A DNA stretch of 64,000 nucleotides from Gammaproteobacteria bacterium (GTDB lineage Bacteria; Pseudomonadota; Gammaproteobacteria; JACKNK01), in the NCBI GenBank assembly GCA_024234955.1, contig JACKNK010000001.1:212835-276834 (forward strand), in the 5' to 3' direction. Below are positions 5,550 to 61,171 of this stretch, piece by piece (position 1 is the stretch's first letter; each line of letters starts with the position of its first letter). The notes beneath the pieces were generated by a model, which saw nothing but the letters and a program-made list of their open reading frames with translations, was not told where the DNA came from and ran no database searches. Made by a program: the position numbers and the translations under genes.

Positions 5550-6134
5550 ATGGTGGTGGAAGAGGGTGTTCAGCTGGTTGTCGATGGCCATGACCGGCAG
5601 GGCCGGGACTTTCTGACCCCATCGGAGATCACGCAGCTGCTCGATGCCGCCAAGAAAGGTCGGCATGGCGTTCGTGACCATGCCTTGCTGCTGACGATGT
5701 ATCGGCATGGATATCGGGTCTCGGAACTCTGTGAGGCGACGCTCAACGACTTGAGTCTTGGCGAGGCGCACATCTGGGTACGGCGAAAGAAGGGATCGAT
5801 GTCGACTCAGCAGCCGATCGAAGGCGACGAACTGCGTGCCTTGCGTCGTTACCTGCGGACAAGGTCATTGAATCAACGATGGCTGTTCCTGTCGGAGCGG
5901 GACGGGCCCTTAACGCGGAATGCGGTGTACTACCTGGTCACGCGTGCCGGCGAAAAGGCTGGACTGCCCTTCACCGTGCATCCGCATATGCTGAGGCACT
6001 CGTGCGGGTACTACCTGGCCAACAAGGGTTACGACTTGAGATTGATCCAGGACTACTTGGGGCACCGAAATCCTACGCATACAGCCAGATATACTCGAAC
6101 CGCATCCGCGCGATTTCATGGACTTTGGTCGTAG
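5550..6134 (+). CDS. FimB/FimE-family tyrosine recombinase, a short site-specific invertase-type recombinase.
   Basis: 194 aa. It is very similar to E. coli FimB throughout, for example HPHMLRHSCGYYLANKGYDLRLIQDYLGHRNPTHTARYT, with the catalytic R..HxxR..Y residues. Confidence 0.85.
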   Translation: MVVEEGVQLVVDGHDRQGRDFLTPSEITQLLDAAKKGRHGVRDHALLLTMYRHGYRVSELCEATLNDLSLGEAHIWVRRKKGSMSTQQPIEGDELRALRRYLRTRSLNQRWLFLSERDGPLTRNAVYYLVTRAGEKAGLPFTVHPHMLRHSCGYYLANKGYDLRLIQDYLGHRNPTHTARYTRTASARFHGLWS

Positions 6135-6501: not shown

Positions 6502-7416
6502 CTAAACGCGCGGCAGCTGCCGAATGACCTGCCGCTGCAACTCCTCGTTGCTGTGTACGTATTCCAGGGTGGACCGGTAGTCGTTGTGTCCCATCAGTTC
6601 CTGCAGGGTGCGTAGATCCGTTTTTGGCGCAAGCATGGTACCGAAGGTGTGTCGCAGCTTGTGCGCGCTGATCGGGATGCTCAGATGGTCGGAGAGGCGG
6701 CGAAAAAAACCGCTGATTTGCTCCGGCGTCAGTTCATCCCCTTTGAAGCGTGTCGTGAACCGGGTCACGTTGAAAAGCTGTTCATCCTGGTCATCGATGC
6801 AAACCTGTATCTCTGACCGGTTCAGCAGGCGCACGAGATGGGGCAGTAAGAGATCCGAGATCGCAATGTCGCGGGCCTCTCCGTTCTTCGAGAACTCGGC
6901 CCGGAGGTGGATGGCGCCAGCGCGAAGGTCGACGTCACCAACACGGATGCCGGCGAGTTGGCGCCGGCGGATTCCGGTGAAGAACAGCGTTCGTATCGCT
7001 GTCGCCCAAAACCAGCCTGGCTCCAAGGCGCAGTCTGGCCCCTCCAGGTAGTCAATCGCAGATTGCACGGTCTCCAGCTGAAGAGACTTCGGCAGCTTCT
7101 TGGGTGGACGTAGCGTTACCCGATCGAAGGGGTTGCTCTCGATGCCTGATTCCACGACATCTTTGCGCAGGAACTCCCACAGGGCCCGCATATGCACGGC
7201 GTAGTTGTTCCAGCTCCGGATCGCTGCTCGGCTCAGTACCTGCTCACGCCAGAGAAGCACGCCTTGCCGGGTCAAGGAGGCCACGTTCCCCACAGGATGG
7301 CCCAGGGCCTCCAAATCTCGCTCGGCGAGAGCAATGACTGTCTGGTAGTGACGCATCGTCGCCGCGCTGGGTAACCGCTCCAGGCGGTAGGCGTTCAGTG
7401 CATCCCACAGTGTCAT
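6502..7416 (-). CDS. Tyrosine site-specific integrase/recombinase of the phage-integrase family, XerC/XerD-like.
   Basis: 304 aa. The C-terminal catalytic region AHKLRHTFGTML...LMGHNDYRSTLEYVH carries the R-H-R-Y signature. Confidence 0.85.
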   Translation of the reverse strand: MTLWDALNAYRLERLPSAATMRHYQTVIALAERDLEALGHPVGNVASLTRQGVLLWREQVLSRAAIRSWNNYAVHMRALWEFLRKDVVESGIESNPFDRVTLRPPKKLPKSLQLETVQSAIDYLEGPDCALEPGWFWATAIRTLFFTGIRRRQLAGIRVGDVDLRAGAIHLRAEFSKNGEARDIAISDLLLPHLVRLLNRSEIQVCIDDQDEQLFNVTRFTTRFKGDELTPEQISGFFRRLSDHLSIPISAHKLRHTFGTMLAPKTDLRTLQELMGHNDYRSTLEYVHSNEELQRQVIRQLPRV

Positions 7417-8855: not shown

Positions 8856-9509
8856 ATGTGCGGTCGATACAACTTGGTGACCGATGCTCAGGCGCTCGTC
8901 GACTTCTTCGACGTGGCCATGGCGATCGACCCGGTCTTTGTGCCCCGATACAACATCGCGCCGACGCAGTTCGTACCGATCGTTCGTGACCAGGGGCGGG
9001 GCAGGGATCTGCTGAATGCCCGCTGGGGCCTCGTGCCGCATTGGTCGCGGGAAGGTGAGACCAAGTATTCGACGATCAACGCACGCGCGGAGACAGTTGC
9101 CGAGAAGCCCACGTACCGGGCTTCGTTCAGGCACCGTCGCTGCCTGGTGCCGGCGACCGGGTTTTACGAATGGAAGGCTGGCGACAATGGTAAGCAGCCA
9201 TACCAAATCACACTCGCCGGCGGCGGACTGCTTGCGTTCGCCGGGTTATGGGATCGATGGATTGGCCAGGAGGGTGAGCTATTCAGCTTCTCGATCGTGG
9301 TTACCGCGGCCGATGCTTCCATGCAGGGGTTGCACGAACGTATGCCCGTGATGCTGGAGCCGAAGGACTACAGCACCTGGCTGACCGGGAGCGGGGACGT
9401 GGTGAGTTCGTTGCTGCGGCCGCACGGTCAGAACCTGGAGCTTCGTCCGGTGAGCCGGTACGTCAACAGTCCTGCCCACGATGATCCGAGGTGTCTCGAC
9501 CCTGTCTAG
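8856..9509 (+). CDS. yedK: SOS-response-associated peptidase (SRAP, YedK/HMCES family). The start is taken at MCGRY. The listed ORF begins 75 nt further upstream.
   Basis: It has the MCGRY N-terminus and the conserved SRAP core (NARWGLVPHW, ARAET, FYEWK). The catalytic Cys2 requires a start at MCGRY. Confidence 0.85.
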   Translation: MCGRYNLVTDAQALVDFFDVAMAIDPVFVPRYNIAPTQFVPIVRDQGRGRDLLNARWGLVPHWSREGETKYSTINARAETVAEKPTYRASFRHRRCLVPATGFYEWKAGDNGKQPYQITLAGGGLLAFAGLWDRWIGQEGELFSFSIVVTAADASMQGLHERMPVMLEPKDYSTWLTGSGDVVSSLLRPHGQNLELRPVSRYVNSPAHDDPRCLDPV

Positions 9510-10801
9510 TTAGCCGGTGACATGGTCACCGGCACAGACGGTGTTGGCAGCGTGTCCGCCTTCATTTCCTGGCCACTTCGGAGAACGGTCGCAAGCGTCG
9601 CCGACCAGAGCTTCTGACGTGCTTCGCGTTCATACATGAGGCGGTCGACCTCATCCTCGATGCGGTCGACGGCTTCGAGCACGCTGGTTCTTGCCGGCGC
9701 CTGCGCGGCCACCTCCGGGACATCGGCTGCGGTCAAAAGCATCCGCCGGATCAGCAGCGCCTGGTCGACCACACGAGACAGGGCAATGTCGGAGGCGATG
9801 CGGTCCACCAGCCAGTCGCGCATCGGATGGCGTCGGATCGCGTTGAGCAGATCGGGTGTGACAGAAACCGCTTCCGATGAGAGCGACGCAAGCGTTTCCG
9901 GGTCATACGTGTTGCTCGCCAGCGCGGTCGTCAGTGCGTCACGTGTGCGCTCCAGTTCGGGTTGCACCTTGGGCAGCAGCCCGACACCTGGTGTCGACTC
10001 CGGTCGCGCACCATCGGTCGTCTGTATGGCCTGATCGCCGAGCGCGGAGACAGCCCAGAGAGCCGCCTGATCCGGCGAAGGCCAGGCCGTGGAAATTCGA
10101 GACCTGGTCGATCGAGGTAACGCGCTGGTGTCGGCAGCTTGCCGCTCGTGGAGCGTGTTGTATCCCGCGCGAACGGCATCCCGAATCGGACGGATCGGGG
10201 GCTGTCCCTCGCCGCCGGCACGACCGCCCAGCCAGTCAACGCCACGCTTGCCGCCATCCCGGTCGACCGTTCTTTTCGCCTGGCTGGCGGAACTTCCCTG
10301 GCTGGCTTGTTCCCGCCAGGCCTCAACCTGCGAGATACGAACCCAATCATCGAGGATGTCGCCGCCTTCGCGGCCGAGCTGTTCGAGCTGCTCGCACGAG
10401 CGGATCGCCACTCGTACCTGTTCCTCCGCTCGGGCCGTGTATCCCTGCATCATCTGGCAGGCCAGCGAGTTCGCCCTGCAGATGATGTAACCGGGGATGC
10501 CGGCGATGCTCGCGGCAATGTCATCCCGGACCTGGACCAGTTCGTCGCGCAGATTGTCGAGCGTGTGCCGCACGGAGGCCTTCGGATCGAACTTGCCACA
10601 GCCGTAGCCGAGCCCTCCGGAACCACCACCGCCCAGCGTGATGTTTCGCGTAGAACCGGAACCCGAAGTCGAAACCGGATTGGCTCCAATCTCGTAGTAC
10701 AGAGCGCTCTGCGCGGGGGAACGCAGTACCGGTGGTGACGAGGCGTCGACCACAGTACCAATAAGACAAATCGGCAGCGCCGCGAGCCAGGTCGACTTCA
10801 T
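9506..10801 (-). CDS. ICE T4SS protein of the PFL_4711 family (TIGR03755-like). It is exported. The start is taken at MKSTW.
   Basis: Its position downstream of the TraU-like gene fits. It has a signal peptide and a Gly-rich GGGGSGGLGYGCG segment. It overlaps the upstream gene by 4 nt. Confidence 0.45.
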   Translation of the reverse strand: MKSTWLAALPICLIGTVVDASSPPVLRSPAQSALYYEIGANPVSTSGSGSTRNITLGGGGSGGLGYGCGKFDPKASVRHTLDNLRDELVQVRDDIAASIAGIPGYIICRANSLACQMMQGYTARAEEQVRVAIRSCEQLEQLGREGGDILDDWVRISQVEAWREQASQGSSASQAKRTVDRDGGKRGVDWLGGRAGGEGQPPIRPIRDAVRAGYNTLHERQAADTSALPRSTRSRISTAWPSPDQAALWAVSALGDQAIQTTDGARPESTPGVGLLPKVQPELERTRDALTTALASNTYDPETLASLSSEAVSVTPDLLNAIRRHPMRDWLVDRIASDIALSRVVDQALLIRRMLLTAADVPEVAAQAPARTSVLEAVDRIEDEVDRLMYEREARQKLWSATLATVLRSGQEMKADTLPTPSVPVTMSPAN

Positions 10802-11910
10802 TGGAGGCATATCTCCGGGGTGGGGACACTGGTCAGGAAGATGCCGGGACCAGGGATGCAGCATTGATAGGGTCGCCAGTACAGCCAGGCGTACCGGCCA
10901 TCGTCGGATTGGTAGCTCGGGTCGCTCCAATCAGAGGGATCGCCAAACGGCCCGCATCTGCCGCTGTCCACGGGCGAGATCATCTGCCATTGGTCGGTGT
11001 CCTCGTCGGAGCCGGGTAGCCACTGAACCGATCGCTGCTCCGCACATTGCCAAACGTTGTCGGCGACTTCGTCCCAGCTGCCGCCGGTCGCTTCGCAATC
11101 GTCTCGGGTTTGCGCGAATCGATCGCCCCAGACCATTTCCTGGGGACCGTCCCAGCCGTAGGGGGTGTAGATGTGGGGCTGTCCTGTTCGGGTCGTTACG
11201 TCCATCGCGCGCTGGGCCGCCACGGCGCCGGCGCGTGCGTCGTCCGCCTGGTGCATGAACCCGGAACGGGGGTACACGCTGGACCAGCTTCGAATAACGT
11301 CCGGCCCGATCTCCCGCAATCCGGGTGTAACGGCTTCAAGCGATAGCGAGTCAGGAAGACCGGAACGCCAGGCAAGGGCGTCAAGCTCGGACACGAAATA
11401 GGGGAAGAACGGCTCCGCCTTGCTCCGGCAAAGGAAGCGGTTGTTTCGCGTCGCGGCGTACGCGATCGGGTTGCCGATCACGGAGGCCTCCTTGAACCGC
11501 ATTTGCGATGGCCCGTTCAGCCCTTCGGAGTCCTCGAGGTAACCGCCGCCGCCGGCGTCGACGCCAAGCAGGGCGTTGGTGATGGCGTTCAAGCCGGCAT
11601 CGGAGGCCTGGCCCAGGGTCGCCCGCAGTTCATCCCACGGGGTCTCTCCAGGTTGTTCATAGACCGTCGCGACCAGGTCAGGCAGGTTGTGGCGGATCTG
11701 CGGCGTCGTTTGAATCGAGCAGGAAGGAGGGAAGGGCGTGCAGACCAACCAGAAACAGATTCCGACCACGCACCAATTCAAGCAATCGACGTTGGCGCTC
11801 CGCTCTGCCAGGTCGAGCGTGTTGAAGGTGCCCGCGAACGAAGGTGTGCCGGCAATGGAGAGCACCAGCACCAACGCGCGTGTTTGCCTCCCTCGACGAC
11901 GTGCATTCAT
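10798..11910 (-). CDS. TraU-like T4SS protein of the PFL_4710 family.
   Basis: 370 aa with a signal peptide and many conserved Cys and Trp residues. Its position after the PFL_4709-like gene fits. Confidence 0.55.
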   Translation of the reverse strand: MNARRRGRQTRALVLVLSIAGTPSFAGTFNTLDLAERSANVDCLNWCVVGICFWLVCTPFPPSCSIQTTPQIRHNLPDLVATVYEQPGETPWDELRATLGQASDAGLNAITNALLGVDAGGGGYLEDSEGLNGPSQMRFKEASVIGNPIAYAATRNNRFLCRSKAEPFFPYFVSELDALAWRSGLPDSLSLEAVTPGLREIGPDVIRSWSSVYPRSGFMHQADDARAGAVAAQRAMDVTTRTGQPHIYTPYGWDGPQEMVWGDRFAQTRDDCEATGGSWDEVADNVWQCAEQRSVQWLPGSDEDTDQWQMISPVDSGRCGPFGDPSDWSDPSYQSDDGRYAWLYWRPYQCCIPGPGIFLTSVPTPEICLQ

Positions 11911-12350
11911 CGACGTTGCAGCCAGGTCTGGATCGCACGACCGGGATCGAGCGTTCCGTAAACGACGTGGTTCGCATCGCCATCGATGACGACAGCGGGT
12001 AAGCGGGTCAACCGGTACTGGCTGGCCAGCAATCGGCCCTGCCAGGCCTGGCCGATCTGGGTCGACCAGTCCGGTTGCTCCTGCAGGCGTCGAAATACCT
12101 CCTGCTGGGCCTGATCCGATTGAGTGGGCAAACCCTCGCTCATCGCCTGCTGCAGACGTGTGACCGCGTCGAGTGCATGCACATGCACCGCGATACCGCG
12201 CTGTTCCAGCGCCACCTGGTTCTGCAACGAGGTAGGCCGTTCAACGAACACATCTATCCGTGACGGACCCGCAATGGCCAACGCGGGAAGCACCCATGCG
12301 AACAGCACCGCAGCTCGGGCCCAGAGTGAATGTTTTGGCATCGAGGTCAC
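11907..12350 (-). CDS. ICE T4SS periplasmic protein of the PFL_4709 family (TIGR03757-like).
   Basis: 147 aa with a signal peptide. Its position between traC and the traU-like gene fits. Confidence 0.45.
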   Translation of the reverse strand: MTSMPKHSLWARAAVLFAWVLPALAIAGPSRIDVFVERPTSLQNQVALEQRGIAVHVHALDAVTRLQQAMSEGLPTQSDQAQQEVFRRLQEQPDWSTQIGQAWQGRLLASQYRLTRLPAVVIDGDANHVVYGTLDPGRAIQTWLQRR

Positions 12351-12592
12351 GCCTGATTCTCGGCGTGTGCCCCTGCTTCCTTGGCGCGGCGGATCTCCAA
12401 ACGATCGACCTTGGTGTGCCTGGGCGCGACCACCCGCAGGTCAGTTGCGCTCCCCCGATCGCCTCGCGAACGAACCACGGTGATGTACACCGCCTCGTCA
12501 CCCTGGCCGATCACCAGGGTCTGTGTCGGCTTGCGACCGAGCGTGAGCACGGAGTGGGTCGGCGGTATGTCGATATCGGTCTCGTGGGTCAC
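12347..12592 (-). CDS. Divergent CsrA-like small RNA-binding protein embedded in the T4SS operon.
   Basis: 81 aa. LTLGRKPTQTLVIGQGDEAVYITVV...LRVVAPRHTKVDRLEI aligns with CsrA ([22 protein letters not shown]...VRIGVNAPKEVSVHREEI). Confidence 0.5.
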   Translation of the reverse strand: MTHETDIDIPPTHSVLTLGRKPTQTLVIGQGDEAVYITVVRSRGDRGSATDLRVVAPRHTKVDRLEIRRAKEAGAHAENQA

Positions 12593-12601
12593 GGGCTGTC
12601 C

Positions 12602-15301
12602 TCAGGCTGCGTGTTGGGTCATCGCCTCGGCGATGCGGATGGCGGCATCGAGTTCACTGATGCCGTGTTCCTGCTGGAGGGCCGCGCGAGCGGCTTTCTC
12701 ATGCTTCTCGGTCTGCGCCAACGCTAAGGCCAGTGCTGGCGGCACAACCCGGAAAAGGCCGGAAACGGCGCGGGCGATTACGACGCCCTCGGTGTAGAGA
12801 CCAGGCTCCTTACGTGTGGAGAGGAGCAGCGCGGTCTGTTCCTCGGTGAGATCCTTGAACTTGCGGATCTGCTCGACGTCGTCGCGCTCCGTGTTCAGGC
12901 AGATCCACCACTCGGGCAGGTTCAGCAGTTCCTTGGTGCTTTCCGGGAACTGACGCATGTTCTGCGTCGCGATCCACAACCAGGCCCCGAACGTGCGCCA
13001 CATAGCGCCCATGCCGGTCAGATAGGGCGCCAGCAGCGCGTTCTTCAGCAGGACATGCGCCTCGTCGACCAGGGTCACCGTCTGGCGAGGATCGAATTGA
13101 TTCGCCTCGACACGGTCGTGGATGCGGTTCATCAGGCCCACCATGGCCACCGCCAGCTTGTCCTCGTAGCCCTTGCGGGCCAACGCGCCCAGCTCGACGA
13201 TGGTGACGTCGACGTCCGGCCAGGCTTCGCCGGGACGGTTGAATAATTCGCCGGCGAAACCCTCGCAGTACAGGCGCATCGCAGTAGCCATCTCGGTAGC
13301 GCGAGCACGTTGGGCATCGTTCTCTCCTAGCTGGCTCAAGGCCACCGCGACATGCTCGGTCAGCACCTCATCGCGTTGCGAGGATCGTGCGGCCGCGAGG
13401 ATGGCTTCCTGGATGAGTGCGCGATCTGCGCGGCTCATCCTGGCTTCTTCCGCCGCTTCGCCACCGGTGATCATCAAGCGAGCAACCAGCTCCATCTGGC
13501 CCAGCGCATCGCCCCCATCCTCGTCGCTCGCTTGATCGGCGGCTTCTCGAAGCCGCTTGGCCTGGGCGAACGGAGGCAGTGAGATTTTCGAATCCGGGGT
13601 GATCGAGACGTGGTTCACCGTGCAGCCGTGACGTTCGAACCACGCAGCGAGCAGTCCAAACGTGGGCAGCGCGGTGATGATGAACAGGCGAGGGCGATGC
13701 ACTGCCATGGCCTGCATCAGCATGTAGTTCAGCGTCGCCGTCTTGCCGGCGCCGGTCGGTCCAAAGAGGAACAGGTGGCCGTTCTTTCTTCGATCCGCGG
13801 AATTGAGAATGTCCAACGTGAACGGCTCGCCGACGCGATTCCAGAACACCGAACCCGGATTGCCGGATCCGGTGGCGCGTCCCCAGACGGGCAGCAGCGC
13901 CGCCAGGTGCGTATCCCAGGTGAGACGCGCGGCCTTGCCATGGCGCGCGTCATGTTTCCAGTCCCAGCAGCCCGGTAGGGCGCGGGCGGCGTAATCGAGT
14001 GACAACGGGTTGTCATCGAGGGGCATTGTCGAGAAGCCTGCCGCCGCGACGGCGGACTCCGCCGACACCGTCCGGGCATCGAGGTCGTCGACATCGCGAC
14101 CGTGGATGTACAGCCCAACCTGAGTGGCGAGCATGTGGTGGCCCCGGGCCATCCAGGTCTGAGCATCGCCGTACTGCTGGCCGGTAAGACGCGCTTCGGC
14201 GGTTTCCCCGAACGCCTGTTCGGCCACCTTGGCCATGTCATCCCGCACCTGATCTTGTGGCAGGAACGCGATCGAGAAATTCAGGATGCTGCCGTTGGGC
14301 AGTCGATCGAACGGAGCCGCGCGGCCGGCTTCCGTAGAGCGGGTCCAGTGGCCGATCCTCGGCGGGTGGAAGGACGGTTCCAGCGGCAGGTAGCGCCAGG
14401 CGCGGTTTCCCCAGGTCCAGGTGCCTGTCTCCGAATCGGACTGGATTGGTCCTCGGCCAAGGCAGAGTTCGGCCAGATCGAAGTGGGCTGGCAGATTGCC
14501 GCTCGCTTCCGCCTCATGCGGGTACGGCGTCTCATCAAGGAAGGTGTAGGCCTCGGCACCGTTGAACCAGGGATACAGCCAATCCCGAAGTTCTCCGCCA
14601 TCCATACGTTGTGTGGCGATACCGGCTTCCGATAGCGACTCGCAGATCCGCACCGAGGCCTGTTCGAGATCGCTCGCGGATGCCGCGCCCGAACGTTTGG
14701 AACCGGGTGCGCGATAGAGCACGGCGCGTAAGCGGCGAAAGCGCGCAGCCCAGGGCAGCCGCGTAGCCGGGTCTTCGAAATAGCCGTCGCCAGCGGACAG
14801 CCGCTCGACGTGCTTGGCGAACAGCGACAACCAGGCGGCGGCCACGCCAGTGTCCGCAGAGCCGTTGTGGGCCTCTACGTACTGCCGAACGTCATGGATC
14901 AACGCCCGTGCCGGCACGTCTTCCAGATAGACCTGCAAGGTCCAAGGTGGGGCACGCTCTGGCAGGGTCTGCAGCGCCGCCTTGATGCGATCGACGACCC
15001 GAGCCAGAGCTTCTTCCTCCCGGGCCTCGGTATCGAACTGGCGCAGTTCCAGGCATAGAAAACGACGTGAGGAATCCGTTCCAACCAATTGATGAGTATC
15101 AGGATCTATCCAGCGCCACGGGATCCGAGCGGCGAAGGAAGGGGTGTTGGACGTCACACCGAATGTGCCGGGGCCATGTTTACGGAGCGGGGGCGCCGGG
15201 CCAAAGAGCGGATACAGGCCGAGCAGCTTGCCGAGGCGATACGCCAGCGTTGAGGGAACGGCACCATAGCGGGCCGTTGCGTGCTCAATGGGATCGGTCA
15301 A
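12602..15301 (-). CDS. traC: Conjugative transfer ATPase TraC (VirB4-like, PFL_4706 family).
   Basis: 899 aa with a Walker A motif, LFLFGPTGAGKTATLNYM. Size and neighbours fit TIGR03744. Confidence 0.9.
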   Translation of the reverse strand: MTDPIEHATARYGAVPSTLAYRLGKLLGLYPLFGPAPPLRKHGPGTFGVTSNTPSFAARIPWRWIDPDTHQLVGTDSSRRFLCLELRQFDTEAREEEALARVVDRIKAALQTLPERAPPWTLQVYLEDVPARALIHDVRQYVEAHNGSADTGVAAAWLSLFAKHVERLSAGDGYFEDPATRLPWAARFRRLRAVLYRAPGSKRSGAASASDLEQASVRICESLSEAGIATQRMDGGELRDWLYPWFNGAEAYTFLDETPYPHEAEASGNLPAHFDLAELCLGRGPIQSDSETGTWTWGNRAWRYLPLEPSFHPPRIGHWTRSTEAGRAAPFDRLPNGSILNFSIAFLPQDQVRDDMAKVAEQAFGETAEARLTGQQYGDAQTWMARGHHMLATQVGLYIHGRDVDDLDARTVSAESAVAAAGFSTMPLDDNPLSLDYAARALPGCWDWKHDARHGKAARLTWDTHLAALLPVWGRATGSGNPGSVFWNRVGEPFTLDILNSADRRKNGHLFLFGPTGAGKTATLNYMLMQAMAVHRPRLFIITALPTFGLLAAWFERHGCTVNHVSITPDSKISLPPFAQAKRLREAADQASDEDGGDALGQMELVARLMITGGEAAEEARMSRADRALIQEAILAAARSSQRDEVLTEHVAVALSQLGENDAQRARATEMATAMRLYCEGFAGELFNRPGEAWPDVDVTIVELGALARKGYEDKLAVAMVGLMNRIHDRVEANQFDPRQTVTLVDEAHVLLKNALLAPYLTGMGAMWRTFGAWLWIATQNMRQFPESTKELLNLPEWWICLNTERDDVEQIRKFKDLTEEQTALLLSTRKEPGLYTEGVVIARAVSGLFRVVPPALALALAQTEKHEKAARAALQQEHGISELDAAIRIAEAMTQHAA

Positions 15302-24631: not shown

Positions 24632-25360
24632 TCATTGATCGGTCGAAGTGGGGGTGAGTGAAAGTTCGCGATGGGGATCGCGTAGCGAAACGACAGTGAC
24701 GCGTTGCTGGTCGACGTCGATATCGCTGATCTTCCACTCACCAATCTGGTCCCCGACCGAAAAGGCACCGACCTGAAACCCAGCCATTTTTTCGCCACCC
24801 CACGTTCGTACCCATTGGGGGCGCTCCGGAGATGGCTGTTGCTGCCGCACCTTCGCAGCTGAACGCTGTGCGGAAAGTGCGTCACGAACCTGACGGACTT
24901 CCTCGTGAAGCAGGGCCAGGCTGCTTTCTATTCCACTGACTCGTTCACCGAGATCGACTTGGGCCTGTCGAGTCCGCTGAACGTCCTCCGCCAGAGAGAC
25001 TGTTTCATCGCGGATCGAGGAAATGCTTAGCCGATGGGCTGTATCCAACTGTTCAACCGACCGAGCGACCAGATCAATGTTCGCTTGAAGAGTGCTCGGC
25101 AAGTCATTGTTTGTAGGCGCAACCGTGTCACTTGGAACGACGGGGTTCGCAGCTATCGGCGTGTTTTCCGAAGCGGGAATCGCTGCTGCGGGAGCAGTGT
25201 TTGGCGGTGCGGTGATGGCATCGATCAGCGCGGTCTGGGTCCCAGAGACTCCCGGGCCTTCCATGGGAGCTGCGCGCCAAATGACGATGACCACAAGAGC
25301 GGCAGCGACAATGACCCCGACCGTCGTCAACGCCCAACGACGTGGCAGCCTCATAGCCAC
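24632..25360 (-). CDS. Membrane-anchored coiled-coil protein, possibly a PilM-like pilus-cluster protein.
   Basis: It has an N-terminal transmembrane segment, a Pro/Ala-rich linker and a coiled coil. It is the last gene of the pil cluster. Confidence 0.35.
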   Translation of the reverse strand: MAMRLPRRWALTTVGVIVAAALVVIVIWRAAPMEGPGVSGTQTALIDAITAPPNTAPAAAIPASENTPIAANPVVPSDTVAPTNNDLPSTLQANIDLVARSVEQLDTAHRLSISSIRDETVSLAEDVQRTRQAQVDLGERVSGIESSLALLHEEVRQVRDALSAQRSAAKVRQQQPSPERPQWVRTWGGEKMAGFQVGAFSVGDQIGEWKISDIDVDQQRVTVVSLRDPHRELSLTPTSTDQ

Positions 25361-26341
25361 TGACTCAAAAGCTCGGTGGCGACCCCGTCACGCATCAATT
25401 GCCGTGCGCATTCGTGGAGCATCGGTCGCCGTTGCCGAGTCTGGTGATAGCCCAACTGATTGATTGCCTCCGCGCCTCGCGAGAGGACGGCGCGGCACTC
25501 ATCATCGATGGCCAGCGATTCCCAGACCGGAAGCGCTCCGGCAGGCGTTCGAACAAGATGCTGCGCAACGACGCCCTGAAGGGCGCCGGGCAGCATTTCA
25601 TCCCCTTGGTCGTCCAGGCGATCCCACATCCGCTCAATCGCCTGGCGGACCGAGTCTGCATGGATGGTGGCCAACACGCGATGGCCACTCAACCCGGCGT
25701 CGATCGCGGCCGCAGCGGCTTCGGGTTCCCTGATCTCGCCAATGACGATCGTTTTGGGAAACTGCCGTAAGGCGTTACGCACACCCTCGGCGAAGGAATC
25801 GACATGTGTGCCGACTTCCCTCTGATGGATCAACGGATCCCCGTGATCGTACTCGATCGGGTGTTCGATGGTGATGGTTTTGCCCAAACAGCCCCGTGCA
25901 AGCTGTGACCGAATCACCGCCGCCATCGTCGAGGACTTGCCGGCACCGGTTGGACCGGCGAAGAGAACGAGGCCGGTACCGGAGCAAAGCGAGAGCAGCT
26001 GATCCTCTTCGAAGCCAAGGCTTTGAAGCTCCGGCATGGTGGTCGGTAGAGCACGTAAAGAAGCCGATCGTCCGTGGTGATGGCCATAGACACACGCACG
26101 CCAGCGCTGATCACCCAGATCTACGGTGAAGTCCTGATCTCCTGAATTGCTCTGCTCAGACGGCATCAGGCGTTGATACCAGTCCCGGTAAACGGACCCT
26201 TCCGGTGCTGAATATCGAATAGCCGTGACAGTGCCCTCTGCGGTCGTGACGACGGCCACGTCCCTATTGAGGTCGATGTCGGTGATGGTGTTCAGCTTGG
26301 AGCTCCGCCCATTACCGGACGCATCTGGCGAAGCTGCCATC
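25351..26341 (-). CDS. PilT/PilU-type (retraction-like) type IV pilus ATPase. The start is taken at MAASPDAS.
   Basis: It has a Walker A motif (LVLFAGPTGAGKSST) and the conserved GEIRE and His-box region. Confidence 0.75.
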
Positions 26342-26884
26342 CCACGCCTGATTGGTGAAGCCGGGCGGGCATCCCCAGGCTGGTTGGAAATAGTTCTGAC
26401 CGGCCCCGTAGTACGTCCAGGACGCCGCCTGGTCCGCACGGTTCTGCGCATTGATGGCACGAGACCGCCCATCGTTGGCCGTGCTCTGGGCGTTGATCGC
26501 ACGACTCCGGCCATCCACACCGATTGAGTACGCGCTATCAGCGCGATTCTGCGCATTGATGGCGCGATTCCGCCCATCCTGTGCGTATGCCCATGCGTTC
26601 TGCACCGTGCTATGGCCACCAATCATCTGGTTGATGGTGTTGACCTGGCCGCTGGTGAACCCAGCCGGCGTGAACTGCCGAGCAGCGTTTGCCGTCGCAG
26701 ACCGTTCGGCGACACCGCCGTTCTGGCCTACGCCGCGTCTCTGCGCGGCGCATTCCCGAAGGGTCAGGTTCTGCTCGAAACACGCCTCCCAGCCGGGCTG
26801 TTCGGCCAACAACCCATCGGACGCTGCGAAGCTGGGGGAACCGATACTGAGCAGAAGCAAGGCAAGCAGAAGTTGTCGATTCAT
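26312..26884 (-). CDS. Secreted protein carrying three tandem ~14-aa repeats, DGR(N/S)RAINAQ(N/S)(R/T)A(D/N).
   Basis: It has a signal peptide, MNRQLLLALLLLSIGSPSFAAS, and the three repeats are visible in the translation. The listed ORF begins at a TTG. Confidence 0.5.
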   Translation of the reverse strand: MNRQLLLALLLLSIGSPSFAASDGLLAEQPGWEACFEQNLTLRECAAQRRGVGQNGGVAERSATANAARQFTPAGFTSGQVNTINQMIGGHSTVQNAWAYAQDGRNRAINAQNRADSAYSIGVDGRSRAINAQSTANDGRSRAINAQNRADQAASWTYYGAGQNYFQPAWGCPPGFTNQAWDGSFARCVR

Positions 26885-26903
26885 GGCGACTCTCCAGTCG
26901 TGG

Positions 26904-27761
26904 TTAGGAACATTTCGCAATCACCGTCATGCGCACGTAGGTACTGTTGACGGCCTCAACCCCGCCGGCGCCGGTCATGACCGGATCAAACTGCCATTGG
27001 GTACCGAGATCGGTCACCGTCACGTCCATGCCGTAGATCGCGCCGGCGGACGGTAGGGAAGCGCGGCGGAAACCCGCCCAGACGGACGCAGAGGTACCGC
27101 TGGGGCAATCGGGTTTCGTGACCACCTCGCCAGGGGTCACCTCGGTCGCGAAGGTCACCGCCTCGGCGAGTGACTGGCCGGTCTGAGTCACCACGTCCTC
27201 CGGATTCACGATCGAGTTGCCGCCCATATCGAGATTCGCGGTCATCTCGCCTGTTGACCCATCACGTGCCAGGAAAGCGTCCAGCGCCGGAATCGCGGCG
27301 GGAAACGGCCAGGCGCCCGACACGGTCGAGCCTGACGTCGACGAAGCGGGCAGGGTGTTGGCGATTACGGACGCACTGGTGGAGTCGCCGGCATCGACCG
27401 AGACCGTGAACGTCCCGCTATTTCCCGTGGTGCAACTCGTCGAGTACGAGGCCCCAGTGGGGGACGCGGAGATGAAGCTGGTGATGTATCCGTCGGCATC
27501 CAGCGTGGCCACCGCGCCAGCGCAGCTGTTTCCTTCGTCAGGCCACGCACCGGCGTTGTCCAGGGTGTAGGACTGAGCGGCCTGGGCGATGTATCGCATC
27601 TGTTCGGCGGTCACGCTCTGAATCTGGCGATCGATTTCGGCAACCTCAGACAGAGCGTTAGCACCGTACCAACCGCCTAGTAGTACGGACGCAACCATCA
27701 TGGAGGCCATCAACTCCAGCAACGTGAAACCGCGCTGTTTACGACTGATGGAGATCACCAT
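26904..27761 (-). CDS. pilV: PilV-like minor pilin/adhesin with a prepilin N-terminus.
   Basis: It has the prepilin motif QRGFTLLELMASMM and a Ser/Thr-rich C-terminal domain. Confidence 0.65.
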   Translation of the reverse strand: MVISISRKQRGFTLLELMASMMVASVLLGGWYGANALSEVAEIDRQIQSVTAEQMRYIAQAAQSYTLDNAGAWPDEGNSCAGAVATLDADGYITSFISASPTGASYSTSCTTGNSGTFTVSVDAGDSTSASVIANTLPASSTSGSTVSGAWPFPAAIPALDAFLARDGSTGEMTANLDMGGNSIVNPEDVVTQTGQSLAEAVTFATEVTPGEVVTKPDCPSGTSASVWAGFRRASLPSAGAIYGMDVTVTDLGTQWQFDPVMTGAGGVEAVNSTYVRMTVIAKCS

Positions 27762-28234
27762 CGCGGGGATTCTTCGTAGAGCTGTCGAGAGTCGACCACA
27801 GAGCCAAGGTACGACCGTGAACCGTGAAACGATGAACTGGCGGTTAGCGTGGTCTGGCCATTCGTCGATGCACTCGAAACCAGAACACCACCCCTGCCGG
27901 TGAGGCTCGGAACGGTCAGCTCAATCGGGATCACGGCGCGCGCGTGACGAAATCGATTCCTCACCGCAATTTCGTAATTCCCACCCCAAGGATCGGTTGC
28001 GAAATCGGTAATCCCGATGACGCTGGGCGCGTTCCAACCGGCAAGAGGGCCGGCGCTGAGCCAATAGTCGTCCGCCGCGCTGACCAGATAGCTCAACGCG
28101 GCGACGGTCGATCGCACCTTGGCGCTCTCTTCACGGGCCTGCCAGCTCGAGCCGATAGATATCAGCGAGACGATGGCGCCCAAGACAAGGGCCAACTCCA
28201 CCAAGGTAAACCCGCGTTGGCGAAGTTCGGTCAT
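27755..28234 (-). CDS. Type IV (minor) pilin with a prepilin-type N-terminal cleavage/methylation domain.
   Basis: It has the motif RGFTLVELALVLGAIVSL. Confidence 0.65.
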   Translation of the reverse strand: MTELRQRGFTLVELALVLGAIVSLISIGSSWQAREESAKVRSTVAALSYLVSAADDYWLSAGPLAGWNAPSVIGITDFATDPWGGNYEIAVRNRFRHARAVIPIELTVPSLTGRGGVLVSSASTNGQTTLTASSSFHGSRSYLGSVVDSRQLYEESPRW

Positions 28235-29397: not shown

Positions 29398-29416
29398 GCC
29401 TGGAACCCGACTAGCG

Positions 29417-29872
29417 TTACAACGTGTAGGTCACCGACAACGTGTCGGTCGTGGCGTTGTAGGACGCCGCGCTGACCGGCGATGTGGTGAACATGTCCGT
29501 CAGGAACAGCACCAATTTGGGGCCGTCGACGTCAGCGTCATCCGCGCTCGTCAGGGGATAGGCGATCGTCACCGTCCGCGCACCGGTGGCACTCACGGAC
29601 CACGTATCGCCCCAGGCGGTGTCGGTCGAATCACTCAACCCGGCCGCCGTCACTCCAGAAAGGGTCTTGGCGGCCGCCCAGTAGGCCGAGACTCCCTGGG
29701 GAATCCGGTTGCCGAGCTGGGTCTGGGCGACCGTGTTCTCGGACTGATTGATGACACCGATGCCCGCACCGACGATGCCTCCAATGATGATTGCGAGGCC
29801 GATCGCCACCAGCGTCATCTCGACGATGGTGTAGCCGGACTGGCGCTTGGACAGACGGATTTGACGTTTCAT
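29417..29872 (-). CDS. pilS: PilS major type IVb prepilin. The start is taken at MKRQIRL.
   Basis: It has a long leader with the processing site KRQSG|YTIVEMTLVAIGLAII. Confidence 0.65.
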   Translation of the reverse strand: MKRQIRLSKRQSGYTIVEMTLVAIGLAIIIGGIVGAGIGVINQSENTVAQTQLGNRIPQGVSAYWAAAKTLSGVTAAGLSDSTDTAWGDTWSVSATGARTVTIAYPLTSADDADVDGPKLVLFLTDMFTTSPVSAASYNATTDTLSVTYTL

Positions 29873-29912
29873 TTGTCGTTTCACGGGTGTACTCCTTCTG
29901 GGAAAGATGAGG

Positions 29913-32266: not shown

Positions 32267-32568
32267 GGGATGGACATCTCCCGCTGGGAATGGATCGAGG
32301 AGCGCCAGCGCGAAAGTACCTTCGAGCGCTGCAACGAATCACGCGAACCAAGCACGGATGCGGTCGTCAACACGATGAGGCCCAGCAGCGAAAGCAGATC
32401 CCGAATGGCGTCCTGATCCAGGAGACGGACAAGCGCAGCGGTACGGACCAGATCCGCCCAATCCATCCATGCCCAACCGACCAGCAGTAAAACGACGCTG
32501 GTCGCGACGAGGTGCAGTGCATCGAGAAGGGTGTCGCCGGCCAGAGCGAGGGAAGCGTGCAGGTTCAT
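32263..32568 (-). CDS. Small membrane protein of the pil cluster.
   Basis: 101 aa and hydrophobic. It is translationally coupled (4-nt overlaps) to both neighbours. Confidence 0.4.
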   Translation of the reverse strand: MNLHASLALAGDTLLDALHLVATSVVLLLVGWAWMDWADLVRTAALVRLLDQDAIRDLLSLLGLIVLTTASVLGSRDSLQRSKVLSRWRSSIHSQREMSIP

Positions 32569-44367: not shown

Positions 44368-44583
44368 TGGGGTTTCCTCCAGAGGAAATGAAACCGAGAG
44401 ACACACCGATCTCCCATCCGGGAAGGCGTGTTCCCGGTGGGATTGACGTTGAGAAGTGGGACTCATCGATCGCTGGGAGCGGTCGATCGCGACGTTACGG
44501 AGTCCGAGGCGTCGCTTTAGTCGGCCTACCGAAGCAGGCACGAAACTGATTCGGACCCTAGATCAGGTCCGAAGAACAGGCAG

Positions 44584-44655: not shown

Positions 44656-44856
44656 TCAAGCGGCGTTGGACTCCCCATCACCGGCACCGGCCTGCTCACT
44701 CTTGATGCGCTCGTAGATCTCCTCACGGTGCACCGCGACGTCGCGAGGGGCGTCGATACCAATGCGCACCTGATTGCCCACCACTGCCAACACGGTGACC
44801 GAAACGTCGTCACCGATCATCAGTGTTTCACCAACGCGACGCGTAAGGATCAGCAC
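44656..44856 (-). CDS. csrA: CsrA/RsmA-family carbon storage regulator, the ICE-borne copy.
   Basis: [51 protein letters not shown] is near-identical to the CsrA consensus. Confidence 0.9.
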
Positions 44857-47130: not shown

Positions 47131-47459
47131 GGCTCAGCTCTTGGTGTGGATGTAGAGCCGGGAACGTACCGATGCGATCAGGAGACACGCGTAAAAGCCC
47201 GTAGTACGGGCTACGCGATTAATTCAAACGAATGCAGGACGGGAGCGTTAGGCGCGCTTGGAGCGCGCCCTGGTGGCGACAAGGATGTCGCCCCTACCTG
47301 GACTCAGCACAGGGATGCGTGCGTGACCAGATCGGAACGGGGTTCGGTCACGGCGCCGAGGTCCGATGCAGCCCGAACCTGACACCCTTCAAAACCATAC
47401 GGCCTGTTGGTTCACGATGACCTGGCAGGAAACACGCCAACGGTACTTATCAGTTGGGA

Positions 47460-47980
47460 AACGGATGCTGTCCAGGGACGGACTCCGAGTAGAAGCGACA
47501 GGATGTCGCGTTCAGGCCGCGTAGCGGGGCGGAACCAAGGAAGGTGAAGGGTAGGCGCGTCCTTGTTTGAAGTCGCGGACTGGGGCGGCTTGAGACAAAT
47601 CCCCATCGAGGTCACCAATGGGAAACTGCTGTCCATGGATGGACGCCTTTCATGCACGGCAGGAAGCCGTGCTTAGGCCGCGAAGCGGGGCGCAGCCAGG
47701 ACGGCGGAGGGTAGGCGCGCGAAGCGCGGTCGAAATTCGCGGTTTTTCCACACGTGAACCGCTTCCAAAAACTACAGGCTTTATATAAAGGTCTGAATAG
47801 GGAGCTACAGGTAGGTACAGGCGGTTCGCTGGAGGCCGCATCTACATTGCCTTTCGGGCCTGTCAGCGGGAGTGATTCTGCGTCAGGGCGGGAGTGATTC
47901 TGCGTAGGACCGGGAGTGATTCTGCGTAGGACCGGGAGTGATTCTGCGTAGGGCCGGGAGCGATTCTGCGCGTACTTCCA
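47460..47980. repeat. Iteron-like repeat region. It has two degenerate ~160-bp direct repeats (47467-47627 and 47628-~47790), an AT-rich core (ttatataaagg) and a DnaA-box-like ttttccaca. Five tandem 22-bp repeats, ccgggagtgattctgcgtagga, span 47867-47976. It is a candidate origin of replication.
   Basis: Repeats were read directly from the sequence. The region is a ~940-bp non-coding gap. Confidence 0.6.
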
Positions 47981-48071
47981 CAGGGTATGCACAGCATATC
48001 CCCAACTACTGAACAAATAGACGCCACCGGCTGCGCCCCGTCGACAGACTGGGTGAGCCGGTTGGCTGAAA

Positions 48072-58610: not shown

Positions 58611-60330
58611 GCGCGCCCCTCCCTTCCCAAAGCGGTATCCCGAGCGAGGTCATCGCGCGATAGGTCGCGATCAAGTCGTCGACCAAATCCGCGTCTCGAT
58701 GCCCGCTTTGGGTTGCCAGGGACAACAGTCCCGGCGCGAAAGCGGGGCCATGGAGCATCTGCGCGTGATCCTGGGCGATTCGGAACACCACCTCCGGTCG
58801 ATCGCTGTCCGCGATCGCAGGTGTGATTGCCCGTTCAGCCCATGCCGGAGGGAGTGCATGACGAACGGTGTCCGGGTCCGCGTGAAACTGCTCGGACAGG
58901 CTCGCAAGGAACCACCAGGCGGCATGACCCTCCGGCTTGATCGATGATGCTCCGACACCGAGGGAGGTCACGAAGTCGATGACGTATCCCAGCCCGGTGG
59001 CATGCACTGTCGGTTCCACCAAGGCGCCAAGGCCATGACGCGTCGCCAGCTGTTTTGCCAGCGTGTACATCCGGGCGCGGTGATTCTTCACCTCATTGGG
59101 CGTCGGGCGTGCTGCGGAATCGTGTCGCGGCGCTGCTGATTGCGCTTCGTCCGGTGTCACTCGGTGCGCCGGCGGAAATGTAGTGCCCGTATCCCTGGAA
59201 AGTTGAAACGATCCACTACCGCTGCCGTGACTGGCGCCACCGCTGGAGAGCGGCTCATCGTCTCCCCATACGTTCCCTGGTTCGAAATCACCATCCTCCA
59301 ATTCATCCGGATGGGACGGGTCGCCGGTTAGATCGAATGGTGGTTCGTCTTCGGTTGGTGTTGATCTTTCGGGGCGTTCTGCCGACCTGGGCTTCGAGGG
59401 CTTCTTCGCCTGGGAACGCGCGACAGCGTCGCGATAGGTGTCGCCTTCCGGGCGGGCGGCGCCGGGATCGCCGAGATACGAACCGATTTCGCAGCCGGCC
59501 ATCATTACGGTGATTTCCGCAAATTGACTGGCGTTCTCGTCCAGCCGCCGGCGTAGCTTGTTCAGGTCGAAATCCGGGCCATCGAGCGCACCGAGGATTT
59601 GCAGAAACGCTTCGTGACCGGTTTCAGGTGCTCCGCATTCGCGCCAGGCCCACCACGACATCCAGGCCTCGTAGTGGGACTTGATCTCAATGACAGTCGG
59701 TCGTCCCAAGCCGAAGCTGAAGGCCTCCGGGAGTGATTCCCCGATCACTTCAACGGCGAATTGCATCGCACCGAGATGCTGTTGGTGAGCCCGGTAGCCC
59801 TTGTCCGCGAGCAACTCGACCAGACGCTTCTGCGTTAGCGATTCGCCGAGCTCTTCCTCAAGCGCGCGTTTGGCGTTGTGAATACCAAGTGCCCGTTCAA
59901 AGAATTTCAGATCGGTGCGCTGGTCGTTCTCGGCGAGGTGCTGGGCGTAGAGCCACGCCTCGCCCTGGTAGGGGATAAAGGTGACCGGGACAGTCTTGAA
60001 GCGCGGTACCGCCGGATATTCGACCGCGAGCTCGTTGAGAATCCCCAGCCGGGTGTTGCCGCCCTCGGAAACGACGTAATGCTCTTCACCCGGCCGACGT
60101 GTGACCGGGATGCGATCACGGAGTCTGGTTTTGAGGATGGAGTCCTTGATTTCGTCCCACTTCGAGTTCTTCGTGATTCGGGGATTGCCCTCGAATCGCC
60201 GGATCCGATCGAGCGGCAATTCCATGTCGGTGATTTCCACCGGGTCTTGCGACGCTATCGTCCCGTTGTTGCCGAAGTGGGTTGCTCCCAATGCTTCTTT
60301 CGCCAGTTCGCTTGCAACCTTCTTAGCCAT
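58606..60330 (-). CDS. ParB-like nuclease-domain protein. The start is at MAKKVASE. The listed ORF start overlaps parA by 337 nt.
   Basis: It has the ParB N-terminal region ELPLDRIRRFEGNPR...VVSEGGNTRLGILNEL. The ATG lies 2 nt after the parA stop. Confidence 0.7.
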   Translation of the reverse strand: MAKKVASELAKEALGATHFGNNGTIASQDPVEITDMELPLDRIRRFEGNPRITKNSKWDEIKDSILKTRLRDRIPVTRRPGEEHYVVSEGGNTRLGILNELAVEYPAVPRFKTVPVTFIPYQGEAWLYAQHLAENDQRTDLKFFERALGIHNAKRALEEELGESLTQKRLVELLADKGYRAHQQHLGAMQFAVEVIGESLPEAFSFGLGRPTVIEIKSHYEAWMSWWAWRECGAPETGHEAFLQILGALDGPDFDLNKLRRRLDENASQFAEITVMMAGCEIGSYLGDPGAARPEGDTYRDAVARSQAKKPSKPRSAERPERSTPTEDEPPFDLTGDPSHPDELEDGDFEPGNVWGDDEPLSSGGASHGSGSGSFQLSRDTGTTFPPAHRVTPDEAQSAAPRHDSAARPTPNEVKNHRARMYTLAKQLATRHGLGALVEPTVHATGLGYVIDFVTSLGVGASSIKPEGHAAWWFLASLSEQFHADPDTVRHALPPAWAERAITPAIADSDRPEVVFRIAQDHAQMLHGPAFAPGLLSLATQSGHRDADLVDDLIATYRAMTSLGIPLWEGRGAR

Positions 60331-61171
60331 GACGCGTCTCCTCGTCAGTGGCCATGACAATCTCGCGATCACGCAGGTGCTCGAAGAGCTCGTCGACGAG
60401 TGCTCGCATGGTCTCGGCAGCACTTGGCGTCGGCCCGCGACGTACCGGTTCCACCAGGTGGACGGGTAGGGCGCGGGTAGCGGCGTTTGCGTACGCAACG
60501 GTGTGTGGAATCTGAGTGTTGAGAATGCGGACTCGGCCTTGCGACCGGGTGAAAGCAGCTTCTCGAAGCGCGGCCACGAAGGCTGCGGAGTCGGCGGTTC
60601 GCTCAACACCATTGACCAGCCCGTACAAGGTGCCGATCGACCCATCGCGGAAGACGCCATCGATGTCTTCGACGGCCTCGATCATGCCTCGCGCAAATTC
60701 TTGCGCCGCAAGGCGACTCGGCATGATGGGGCTCAGTACGAAATCACCGGCGAGCAGGGCCGCGTGGAGAAGCGGGCTTCTGGTTCCCGGCGAGTCGATG
60801 AGAACGACGTCGTAGCCGGAAAGCGCCCGTACCGCGCGCCGGAGCCGGATACGCCCATCCGGCGTCGACTCCATCCAGCGTTGAAGTTCGCCCTGGCGGT
60901 CGTTGGACACCACCAAGTCGAGATTCGGGAAACTGGTCCTGGAGATGACCCCATCCCAGGCTTCCGTTGGATCCCGCCTGGTCACCAGTTCCACCAGGCC
61001 TGCTTCCGCCGGTTCGTCGATCTTGAAGTACGACGACAAACCCGGCTGGATGTCTCCGTCGATTAACAACACTCGTTCACCGAGTGCCGCTAACATGCCC
61101 CCCAAGTTGGCGGTTGTTGTGGTCTTTCCGGTACCGCCTTTACTGCTGCAAACCGCTACGATGATCGTCAT
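60323..61171 (-). CDS. soj: ParA/Soj-family partition ATPase, the first ICE gene next to the att repeat.
   Basis: It has a deviant Walker A motif, VCSSKGGTGKTTTTANLG. Confidence 0.9.
   Translation of the reverse strand: MTIIVAVCSSKGGTGKTTTTANLGGMLAALGERVLLIDGDIQPGLSSYFKIDEPAEAGLVELVTRRDPTEAWDGVISRTSFPNLDLVVSNDRQGELQRWMESTPDGRIRLRRAVRALSGYDVVLIDSPGTRSPLLHAALLAGDFVLSPIMPSRLAAQEFARGMIEAVEDIDGVFRDGSIGTLYGLVNGVERTADSAAFVAALREAAFTRSQGRVRILNTQIPHTVAYANAATRALPVHLVEPVRRGPTPSAAETMRALVDELFEHLRDREIVMATDEETRHG

Follow-up and report, generated by a model that had tools for sequence, protein, structure and literature searches.

CsrA homologs of conjugative elements and the locus under study

The closest described counterparts of the gene considered here, a csrA-like gene embedded in the conjugative transfer operon of an integrative conjugative element (ICE) in a 64-kb stretch of gammaproteobacterial DNA (the whole stretch is hereinafter called the window), come from Legionella. 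In this genus, all csrA paralogs outside the core genome reside on ICEs and adjoin type IV secretion system (T4SS) genes; they differ from the core csrA and have kept the essential arginine (PMC4471563). According to Abbott et al. 2015 (quoted in PMC7366521), these paralogs are co-inherited with the T4SS genes and have been proposed to regulate ICE activity. In the Legionella GI-type T4SS (LGI) clusters, a gene for a CsrA-domain protein, lvrC, belongs to the 5' lvrRABC module that has been termed unique to Legionella (PMC3864950), and a plasmid of Legionella geestiana (locus L175, 7816-8243) carries two abutting csrA genes directly before traT-traL-traE, at the head of an F-type tra operon. 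The Pseudomonas fluorescens megaplasmid pQBR103 encodes RsmQ, a CsrA homolog that binds host mRNAs, remodels host translation and conditionally affects the conjugation rate (PMC9928087). For ICEclc, a study of the T4SS nowhere uses the phrase 'carbon storage regulator', and those of its passages that deal with regulators name BisR and BisDC (PMC10018362). The initial annotation of the window held that control of conjugation by the Legionella ICE-borne CsrA paralogs is established. To the extent covered by the passages cited above, the co-inheritance, the proposed role in ICE activity and the effect of mutations in the lvr region on excision all stand, and 'established' overstates them.

The analysis reported here is computational and based on sequences. 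The csrA-like gene, its neighbors in the host operon and the second, canonical csrA gene in the window are the following:

12347..12592, minus strand: csrA-like gene, 81 codons and a stop codon, with a GTG start at 12592 and a TGA stop at 12347..12349
12599..12603, minus strand: Shine-Dalgarno sequence GAGGA of the csrA-like gene, 6 nucleotides 5' of the start codon and overlapping the traC stop codon
12602..15301, minus strand: traC, encoding a VirB4-type conjugative transfer ATPase of 899 amino acids (TIGR03744, traC_PFL_4706, 852.4 bits against a cutoff of 520.6; Pfam TraC_F_IV)
11907..12341, minus strand: TIGR03757/DUF1525 gene (TIGR03757, 73.9 against 73.2 bits; PF07511)
10798..11910, minus strand: TraU-like gene, next in the operon (TIGR03756, 268 against 188 bits; PF06834)
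9506..10930, minus strand: gene for an ICE protein, the last T4SS gene of the block (TIGR03755, 302.6 against 270 bits)
44656..44856, minus strand: canonical csrA, encoding 66 amino acids (NF002469, 111.5 against 73 bits; TIGR00202, 96.5 against 70.1 bits; Pfam CsrA, 91 bits)

Judged by its profile matches, the host operon is a GI-type (MPF_G, ICEclc/ICEHin1056/PAPI-1-like) conjugative T4SS of an ICE. It matches the GI-type/MPF_G markers TIGR03744, TIGR03756, TIGR03755 and TIGR03757, with TIGR03751 remaining under its cutoff (64 against 78 bits), and the genes located upstream in the operon encode the RAQPRD, DUF3262, DUF2976, DUF3487, DUF2895 and DUF3438 domains that are typical of the GI-type family. 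The position initially assigned to the csrA-like gene, between traC and the next gene of the T4SS operon, is correct, with traC upstream and the TIGR03757/DUF1525 gene downstream; the strand, which had been left unstated, is minus.

The gene in the window is of a known kind, namely a CsrA paralog that is borne by, and linked to, a conjugative element; what sets it apart is the ICE lineage, the place in the middle of the operon without lvr genes, and the divergence of the protein. The resemblance to LvrC and to CsrT of ICE-beta-ox is that a CsrA-family gene is carried by an ICE, adjoins the T4SS genes and is tied to one T4SS lineage; furthermore, the Legionella LGI clusters and the window element share the broad GI-type T4SS class. 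Unlike lvrC, the gene in the window is single, is located in the middle of the operon, between traC and the TIGR03757 gene, and has no lvr neighbors, and its host is not Legionella but an uncultured gammaproteobacterium represented by a metagenome-assembled genome (MAG). A tblastn search of the PLSDB plasmids with the 81-amino-acid (aa) protein yielded nothing at E ≤ 0.01, although Legionella plasmids bearing csrA are included in PLSDB. Similarly to RsmQ, the protein is a CsrA homolog from a conjugative element that is more divergent than the chromosomal copies, but it is far more diverged, contains an N-terminal extension and loop insertions, and has no plasmid match. In a check that covered the match itself, the RsmQ match on pQBR103 has no T4SS feature under it. 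The product of the csrA gene of a related element described below (locus L007) shares 53% identity with the pQBR103 copy in an alignment of 53 residues. With E. coli CsrA and Pseudomonas RsmA and RsmE (1y00, 2bti, 2jpp, 7yr6) the window protein shares the predicted fold and the RNA-binding positions; in contrast to the housekeeping csrA genes, its gene lies in a conjugation operon and not in a core-genome locus.

Assignment of the 81-aa protein to the CsrA family

The translation of the open reading frame (ORF), MTHETDIDIPPTHSVLTLGRKPTQTLVIGQGDEAVYITVVRSRGDRGSATDLRVVAPRHTKVDRLEIRRAKEAGAHAENQA, scores 28.7 bits against the Pfam CsrA profile, PF02599 (gathering score 27; E-value 1.3e-6), with residues 16-70 aligned to profile positions 2-50 of 53. 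The match is beyond chance because this E-value survives correction for the approximately 1000 ORFs in the window. The weak score is also backed by the genes that occupy the same position in related elements, two of which score far higher (62.1 bits for L007 and 53.1 bits for L176; the close relative of the window gene at L092 scores 29.6 bits). In the contigs of MAG GCA_020444785.1, which are identical to the window, gene callers name the 81-aa product 'carbon storage regulator'.

An AlphaFold2 model of the single chain, built from 14 aligned sequences, has a mean pLDDT of 83 and a pTM of 0.63, and contains strands at residues 25-28, 35-43 and 49-55 followed by a long C-terminal helix (65-80). 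No strand is assigned at beta1 or beta5 in this single-chain model, as would be the case if both paired with the other subunit. When the model is compared with the PDB by Foldseek, ranks 1-5 are all occupied by CsrA, RsmE or RsmA structures (5dmb, 2bti, 2mfc, 2jpp and 7yr6; probability 0.91-1.00, target-normalised TM 0.58-0.76), after which there is a sharp drop to unrelated folds with probability <0.3. A profile of the 81-aa protein and its nearest relatives, which itself includes a canonical CsrA, retrieves CsrA, RsmA and RsmE chains from the PDB with E-values from 5e-21 to 1e-16; a phmmer search of the PDB with the 81-aa sequence alone gives E-values of 0.25-0.8, which are not significant. 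The profile match and the structural model identify the product of this real coding sequence as a member of the CsrA family, highly diverged but with a predicted CsrA fold, as had been proposed from the pattern of residues alone and made conditional on a match by profile or structure prediction. The N-terminal extension recognized at the same time comprises 14 residues relative to CsrA when the best start codon is used. The reported divergence of the C-terminus holds for approximately the last 11 residues and not otherwise, given that the C-terminal helix is still predicted.

In the alignment with CsrA, residues L16, L18, R20, I28, G29 and A56 of the 81-aa protein are equivalent to L2, L4, R6, I14, G15 and A36, respectively, and P57, V62, R64, E66 and I67 are equivalent to P37, V42, R44, E46 and I47; in the N-terminal L-x-L-x-R-R/K strand, K21 aligns with R7. 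The equivalent of E. coli R44, R64, is invariant across all alignments. Beyond this arginine, the wider set of RNA-binding residues of CsrA is that of the alanine scan of the E. coli protein. By this comparison, the positions through which CsrA contacts GGA-containing RNA are retained in the 81-aa protein, including the R44-type arginine that is essential for RNA binding by CsrA (PMC4471563).

A CsrA-family gene after traC marks one TraC clade

Only 3 proteins were recovered by a word-indexed homolog search with the 81-aa protein, and when 1.8 billion cluster representatives were searched exhaustively with phmmer, its own cluster came up together with weak, short CsrA-like matches (E-values from 1e-5 to 1e-3); a few long repetitive proteins in the phmmer output were set aside as compositional noise. 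Related loci were gathered with a broad TraC alignment, the narrower scans with a single sequence or with the three closest TraC proteins having given nothing usable. The following genes were found in the slot immediately after traC:

L092: CsrA-family gene, 81 amino acids, 85% amino acid identity to the window copy (Pfam score 29.6 bits)
L007: CsrA-family gene, 87 amino acids (62.1 bits)
L176: CsrA-family gene, 72 amino acids (53.1 bits)
L179: CsrA-family gene, 72 amino acids, after a traC fragment whose product is 69% identical to the window TraC

In a neighbor-joining tree of TraC from 166 loci, the sequences from the window, L092, L007 and L176 group together to the exclusion of all others, with approximately 60% TraC identity among the three sublineages of this clade and at most 47% identity to all other TraC proteins. 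Of the remaining 162 GI-type traC loci, 80 are from named genomes (mainly of Pseudomonas, Stenotrophomonas and other Proteobacteria) and 80 from metagenomic contigs, with 2 more besides. In none of them does a CsrA-like ORF with E < 0.1 lie at a distance of up to 3.5-4 kb from traC; 156 of these loci extend for at least 700 nucleotides 3' of traC. Thus, possession of a CsrA-family gene in the traC slot characterizes one deep TraC clade, and the sampled remainder of the family lacks it. The initial annotation knew of no canonical CsrA gene within the T4SS operon of this ICE family, in agreement with the distribution found here, and had made its claim dependent on conservation in related elements, which is provided by the same-slot genes of L092, L007, L176 and L179 and by the purifying selection described below. 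The csrA-like gene is not unique to the window element but marks the whole TraC clade.

The nearest relatives from outside the clade (P0013, P0014, P0019 and P0057) come from short contigs without T4SS genes, and the gene upstream of P0014 does not encode TraC. A 99-aa ORF that fills the slot in L073 and L074 (E-values 0.37 and 5.5) was rejected as a CsrA relative, having merely a VDRREI-like string in common with the family. In Pseudomonas salomonii (L023, 6778-7050), the slot after traC is filled by a gene for a 90-aa HU/IHF-like protein, so that this position has recruited genes for small proteins that bind nucleic acids from more than one family. A single metagenome run, ERR14788039 (the source of L092, L179 and L182), contains the 81-aa type and the 72-aa type after traC along with a CsrA gene in a chromosomal context (P0032); because all of these come from the same run, the element lineages and a possible gene donor share a habitat. 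Another metagenomic contig, L093, carries two CsrA genes approximately 400 nucleotides apart (950-1755).

Predicted function and alternative explanations

We consider it fairly probable that the 81-aa protein is an RNA-binding regulator that is made together with the mating machinery. Neither a sigma-70-like promoter nor an intrinsic terminator was found on the minus strand at 12-15 kb. Because the gene has no such site of its own and is separated from its neighbors by spacers of only 9 and 5 nucleotides, its expression appears to be tied to the transfer operon, and it would be transcribed only with that operon, that is, in donor cells preparing for conjugation. Acting in the manner of the Legionella LvrC and CsrT proteins and the plasmid-encoded RsmQ, a homodimer would bind mRNAs of the ICE and/or the host at GGA motifs located in hairpin loops or in Shine-Dalgarno regions, and the resulting changes in translation or stability of the bound mRNAs would amount to a post-transcriptional program coupled to transfer competence. 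Because the element has its own canonical csrA elsewhere, in an ssb-HU operon, we infer that the 81-aa protein does not stand in for the housekeeping CsrA and that the two proteins probably differ in their stage of action or in their targets.

In the gene orientation, the junction between traC and the csrA-like gene reads ...GCAGCC TGA GGACAGCCC GTG ACC..., with the TGA stop codon of traC at 12602..12604 and the GTG start codon 9 nucleotides further on. On the other side, the ATG of the TIGR03757/DUF1525 gene (144 amino acids as predicted by gene callers) is at 12341, 5 nucleotides past the csrA-like stop codon, and an alternative GTG start at 12350 overlaps this stop codon as GTGA. Translational coupling in the window is plausible from these spacers of 9 and 5 nucleotides. 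The overlap between the Shine-Dalgarno sequence and the traC stop codon is the same in L092. Because the tight spacing is not kept in L007 and L176, where 97 and 34 nucleotides, respectively, separate traC from a CsrA-family gene with its own Shine-Dalgarno sequence, such coupling is a local and not a defining feature. The initiation region of the csrA-like gene could form a 3-base-pair hairpin, CUG-AGGA-CAG, with AGGA in the loop, which is only suggestive with respect to regulation.

Co-inheritance of CsrA paralogs with conjugation machines has previously been argued in the case of Legionella elements and some plasmids. The present locus shows that this pairing also originated and persisted in another deep branch, belonging to the widespread GI-type ICE family, in uncultured Gammaproteobacteria, with the gene inside the structural operon and not in a regulatory module upstream of it. 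The finding supports the view of CsrA-like post-transcriptional control as a recurrent solution of mobile elements. With its small gene, defined operon and second, canonical copy, the locus provides a compact test case for transfer regulation versus host reprogramming. The current picture of CsrA and ICE biology is unchanged by this finding, and its novelty is modest.

Several observations, here and in the next two paragraphs, weigh against a CsrA-type regulator of transfer. The Pfam CsrA match exceeds its threshold by just 1.7 bits. The 81-aa protein fails both equivalog profiles of the housekeeping CsrA (NF002469, 19.3 against 73 bits; TIGR00202, 15.5 against 70.1 bits), which are passed by the canonical copy, and therefore is a paralog and not a housekeeping CsrA. 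Window-wide, no convincing CsrA target was found, and neither the clustering of ANGGA nor the counts of ACARGGATG/CANGGANG are above chance.

Among the alternatives, the one that fares best, unlikely as we consider it to be, is that the gene is accessory cargo in a permissive slot, that is, a CsrA homolog steering host physiology (motility, metabolism, biofilm) like RsmQ, without a transfer-specific role. Over the 162 related loci, the slot downstream of traC is highly variable and contains genes for DsbA/thioredoxin-like, HU-like or RadC proteins, toxin-antitoxin pairs, non-coding spacers, or directly the DUF1525 gene; this variability could mean that the csrA-like gene is cargo rather than a transfer regulator. 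The slot CsrAs are mutually 38-47% identical and do not group in a neighbor-joining tree of 129 short CsrA-like proteins (64 columns, unresolved). The L007 copy is 75-78% identical to the CsrAs P0030-P0033, and P0032 (77% identical to the L007 copy) adjoins genes for a response regulator and a nadB-like oxidase, rpoE and rseA, in what looks like a chromosomal locus. This context suggests capture from a host chromosome, and the slot may have been refilled with host CsrA genes rather than inherited; the carriage of rsm genes by plasmids is likewise regarded as convergent, with possible re-acquisition from chromosomes (PMC9928087). The other of the two readings of the slot CsrAs is inheritance from the ancestor of the clade combined with fast evolution, and selection for a CsrA-family gene at the traC slot is implied by both. 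Unlike random cargo, a CsrA-family gene is present in the slot in all 5 sampled members of the TraC clade, despite approximately 40% TraC divergence, and in none of the other sampled members of the family; moreover, the short spacers within the operon link expression of the gene to that of the T4SS genes in the window and in L092.

A further alternative, which we regard as distinctly improbable, is that the CsrA fold has been put to a changed job: instead of regulating mRNAs on its own, the protein would work through contacts with other proteins, either antagonizing the canonical CsrA of the ICE or host by mixed dimers or competition, or assisting the TraC ATPase as an accessory factor produced at a fixed ratio to it. 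The window copy is the most diverged of the slot series (Pfam score 29 bits compared with 53 and 62; 91 for the canonical copy), and its identity to housekeeping CsrA, RsmA and RsmE is 30-34%. In addition to the N-terminal extension, which is under purifying selection (few sites), there are two 3-residue insertions, one after the IG motif (IGQGDEAV) and one in the turn between beta3 and beta4; VDRLEIR replaces VHREEIY, T60 and D63 are found in place of V40 and H43, respectively, and the tail differs. The extension, the loop insertions and the replacements of H43 and V40 could alter or abolish RNA binding. Also compatible with a changed job are the position of the csrA-like start codon, 9 nucleotides past the traC stop codon that the Shine-Dalgarno sequence overlaps, and the canonical CsrA available as a partner on the same element. 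However, the RNA-contacting residues, including the essential arginine, are kept; the N-terminus of CsrA is located at the RNA-binding edge, so that an extension alone is no sign of lost binding; and no protein partner is in evidence. No FliW-like gene appears in the ORF annotation. Certain short CsrA-like proteins from metagenomes, a loosely defined set, also have the IG-x-G insertion and the motif VDR-x-E-[VI]-R.

The coding status of the gene was assessed by comparison of the window with L092, where the element DNA is 13% diverged. The ratios of nonsynonymous to synonymous substitution rates (dN/dS) are as follows:

csrA-like gene, whole: 0.27
csrA-like core, codons 15-70: 0.16
csrA-like N-terminal extension: about 0.17 (dN 0.049, dS 0.29; very few sites)
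csrA-like last 11 codons: relaxed
DUF1525 gene: 0.18
TraU-like gene: 0.11
traC: 0.08

Third codon positions of the csrA-like frame take 19 of the 32 substitutions, and because the third-position bias falls in this frame, the overlapping plus-strand ORFs are not the coding frame. The L092 copy is identical to the window copy in length and start, and the csrA-like gene is, as judged from the substitution pattern, under purifying selection. That the ORF is spurious or decaying, either a chance frame in GC-rich DNA or a pseudogenized CsrA remnant, is hardly credible: the DNA is 61% G+C with many long overlapping ORFs on both strands, the Pfam score barely exceeds the threshold, and only 3 proteins with >50% identity are found among the 1.8 billion cluster representatives, but the low dN/dS and third-position excess, the confidently predicted fold, the preservation of length and start in L092 despite the DNA divergence, and the syntenic CsrA genes with strong HMM (hidden Markov model) scores in the sister lineages all speak against it.

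The canonical csrA, the element and candidate RNA targets

A tight operon, ssb - HU-like - csrA (44656-45543), ends with the canonical csrA, which overlaps the HU gene by 7 nucleotides and is followed by a DUF3577 gene. This setting resembles that of the early-expressed establishment genes of conjugative elements. A tRNA-Pro(GGG) of 83 nucleotides predicted by ARAGORN at 44441..44523 is probably false: Rfam gives no tRNA in the window at gathering scores, and the prediction overlaps the 5' end of the DUF3577 ORF. The span from the ParA gene (60323..61171) to the tyrosine recombinase genes (6502..7416 and 5550..6134) encloses the canonical csrA, along with genes for RepA_C, topoisomerase III, TraG_N, an AcaB-like protein, RadC, DUF3275 and an SNF2 helicase, the type IV pilus cluster, the coupling protein and the T4SS genes. 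By position, both CsrA-family genes are on one element, the ends of which were not found in the window; the presence of two such genes, which the initial annotation had noticed, is upheld by the canonical copy passing the Pfam and the NCBIfam equivalog profiles.

Between the AcaB-like gene and a DUF5131 gene lies a non-coding stretch of 940 nucleotides (47131..48071) that contains 34 GGA on the plus strand and 10 on the minus strand, compared with a window mean of 16.5 per 940 nucleotides (standard deviation 4.3). Its hairpins include the following:

47275-47292, plus strand: GGA-loop hairpin GGCGACA-AGGA-UGUCGCC (GGCGACAAGGATGTCGCC), of a form similar to CsrA sites
47495-47509, plus strand: GGA-loop hairpin GCGACA-GGA-UGUCGC (GCGACAGGATGTCGC), of a form similar to CsrA sites
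47654-47672, plus strand: GGA-loop hairpin GCACGGC-AGGAA-GCCGUGC
47725-47741, plus strand: terminator-like hairpin

A segment of approximately 95 nucleotides is duplicated in this stretch (47466-47559 and 47627-47719), and five tandem 22-nucleotide iteron-like repeats (CGGGAGTGATTCTGCGTAGGAC) are found at 47867-47976. A block of approximately 60 nucleotides (47658-47718) recurs with 84-91% identity in intergenic regions of the plasmids NZ_CP100554 and CP098607 (Pseudomonas) and pMBUI6 (KC170282); in NZ_CP100554 and KC170282, the block is followed by an AT-rich stretch and iterons, in an origin-type region. The hairpin beside this block keeps GGA in its loop across these records with three different stem sequences, and RNAalifold applied to the conserved block does not select the GGA hairpin. 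A search against Rfam gave no match in the window at gathering scores and none at E ≤ 10 in the 46.9-47.8 kb region. The stretch could encode a CsrA-binding RNA; it may equally be an iteron-type origin, a reading at least as good on the sequence features listed. The RepA_C gene is located at 57111-58052, 9 kb from the iteron-like repeats.

A self-contained Csr circuit would combine the csrA-like paralog acting at the donor stage, the canonical CsrA acting in another phase (e.g., early in the recipient) and a GGA-hairpin RNA at approximately 47.2-47.75 kb, beside a putative iteron-type origin, that titrates one or both of them. We consider such a circuit very doubtful; if it does exist, the element brings its own post-transcriptional switch between transfer and maintenance and does not rely on the host Csr/Rsm system.

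The TraG_N gene (50702-52219) is approximately 40 kb away from the TIGR03755 gene (9506-10930), which it usually follows in this family (as in L009). The T4SS block ends beside genes for an SRAP protein, a fatty acid hydroxylase and two tyrosine recombinases, one of which has just 194 amino acids. This arrangement suggests that the transfer region has been rearranged or split.

A type IV pilus-like cluster (25351-35529) is located between the helicase/methylase genes and the T4SS genes:

33952-35529: secretin
29913-31601 and 25351-26622: T2SSE ATPases
28231-29397: T2SSF protein

Upstream of the minus-strand block of pilus and T4SS genes, in a 1-kb intergenic gap (36366-37379), there is a sharply AT-rich island (36990-37300) in an element with 61% G+C, and this island is possibly the main promoter region.

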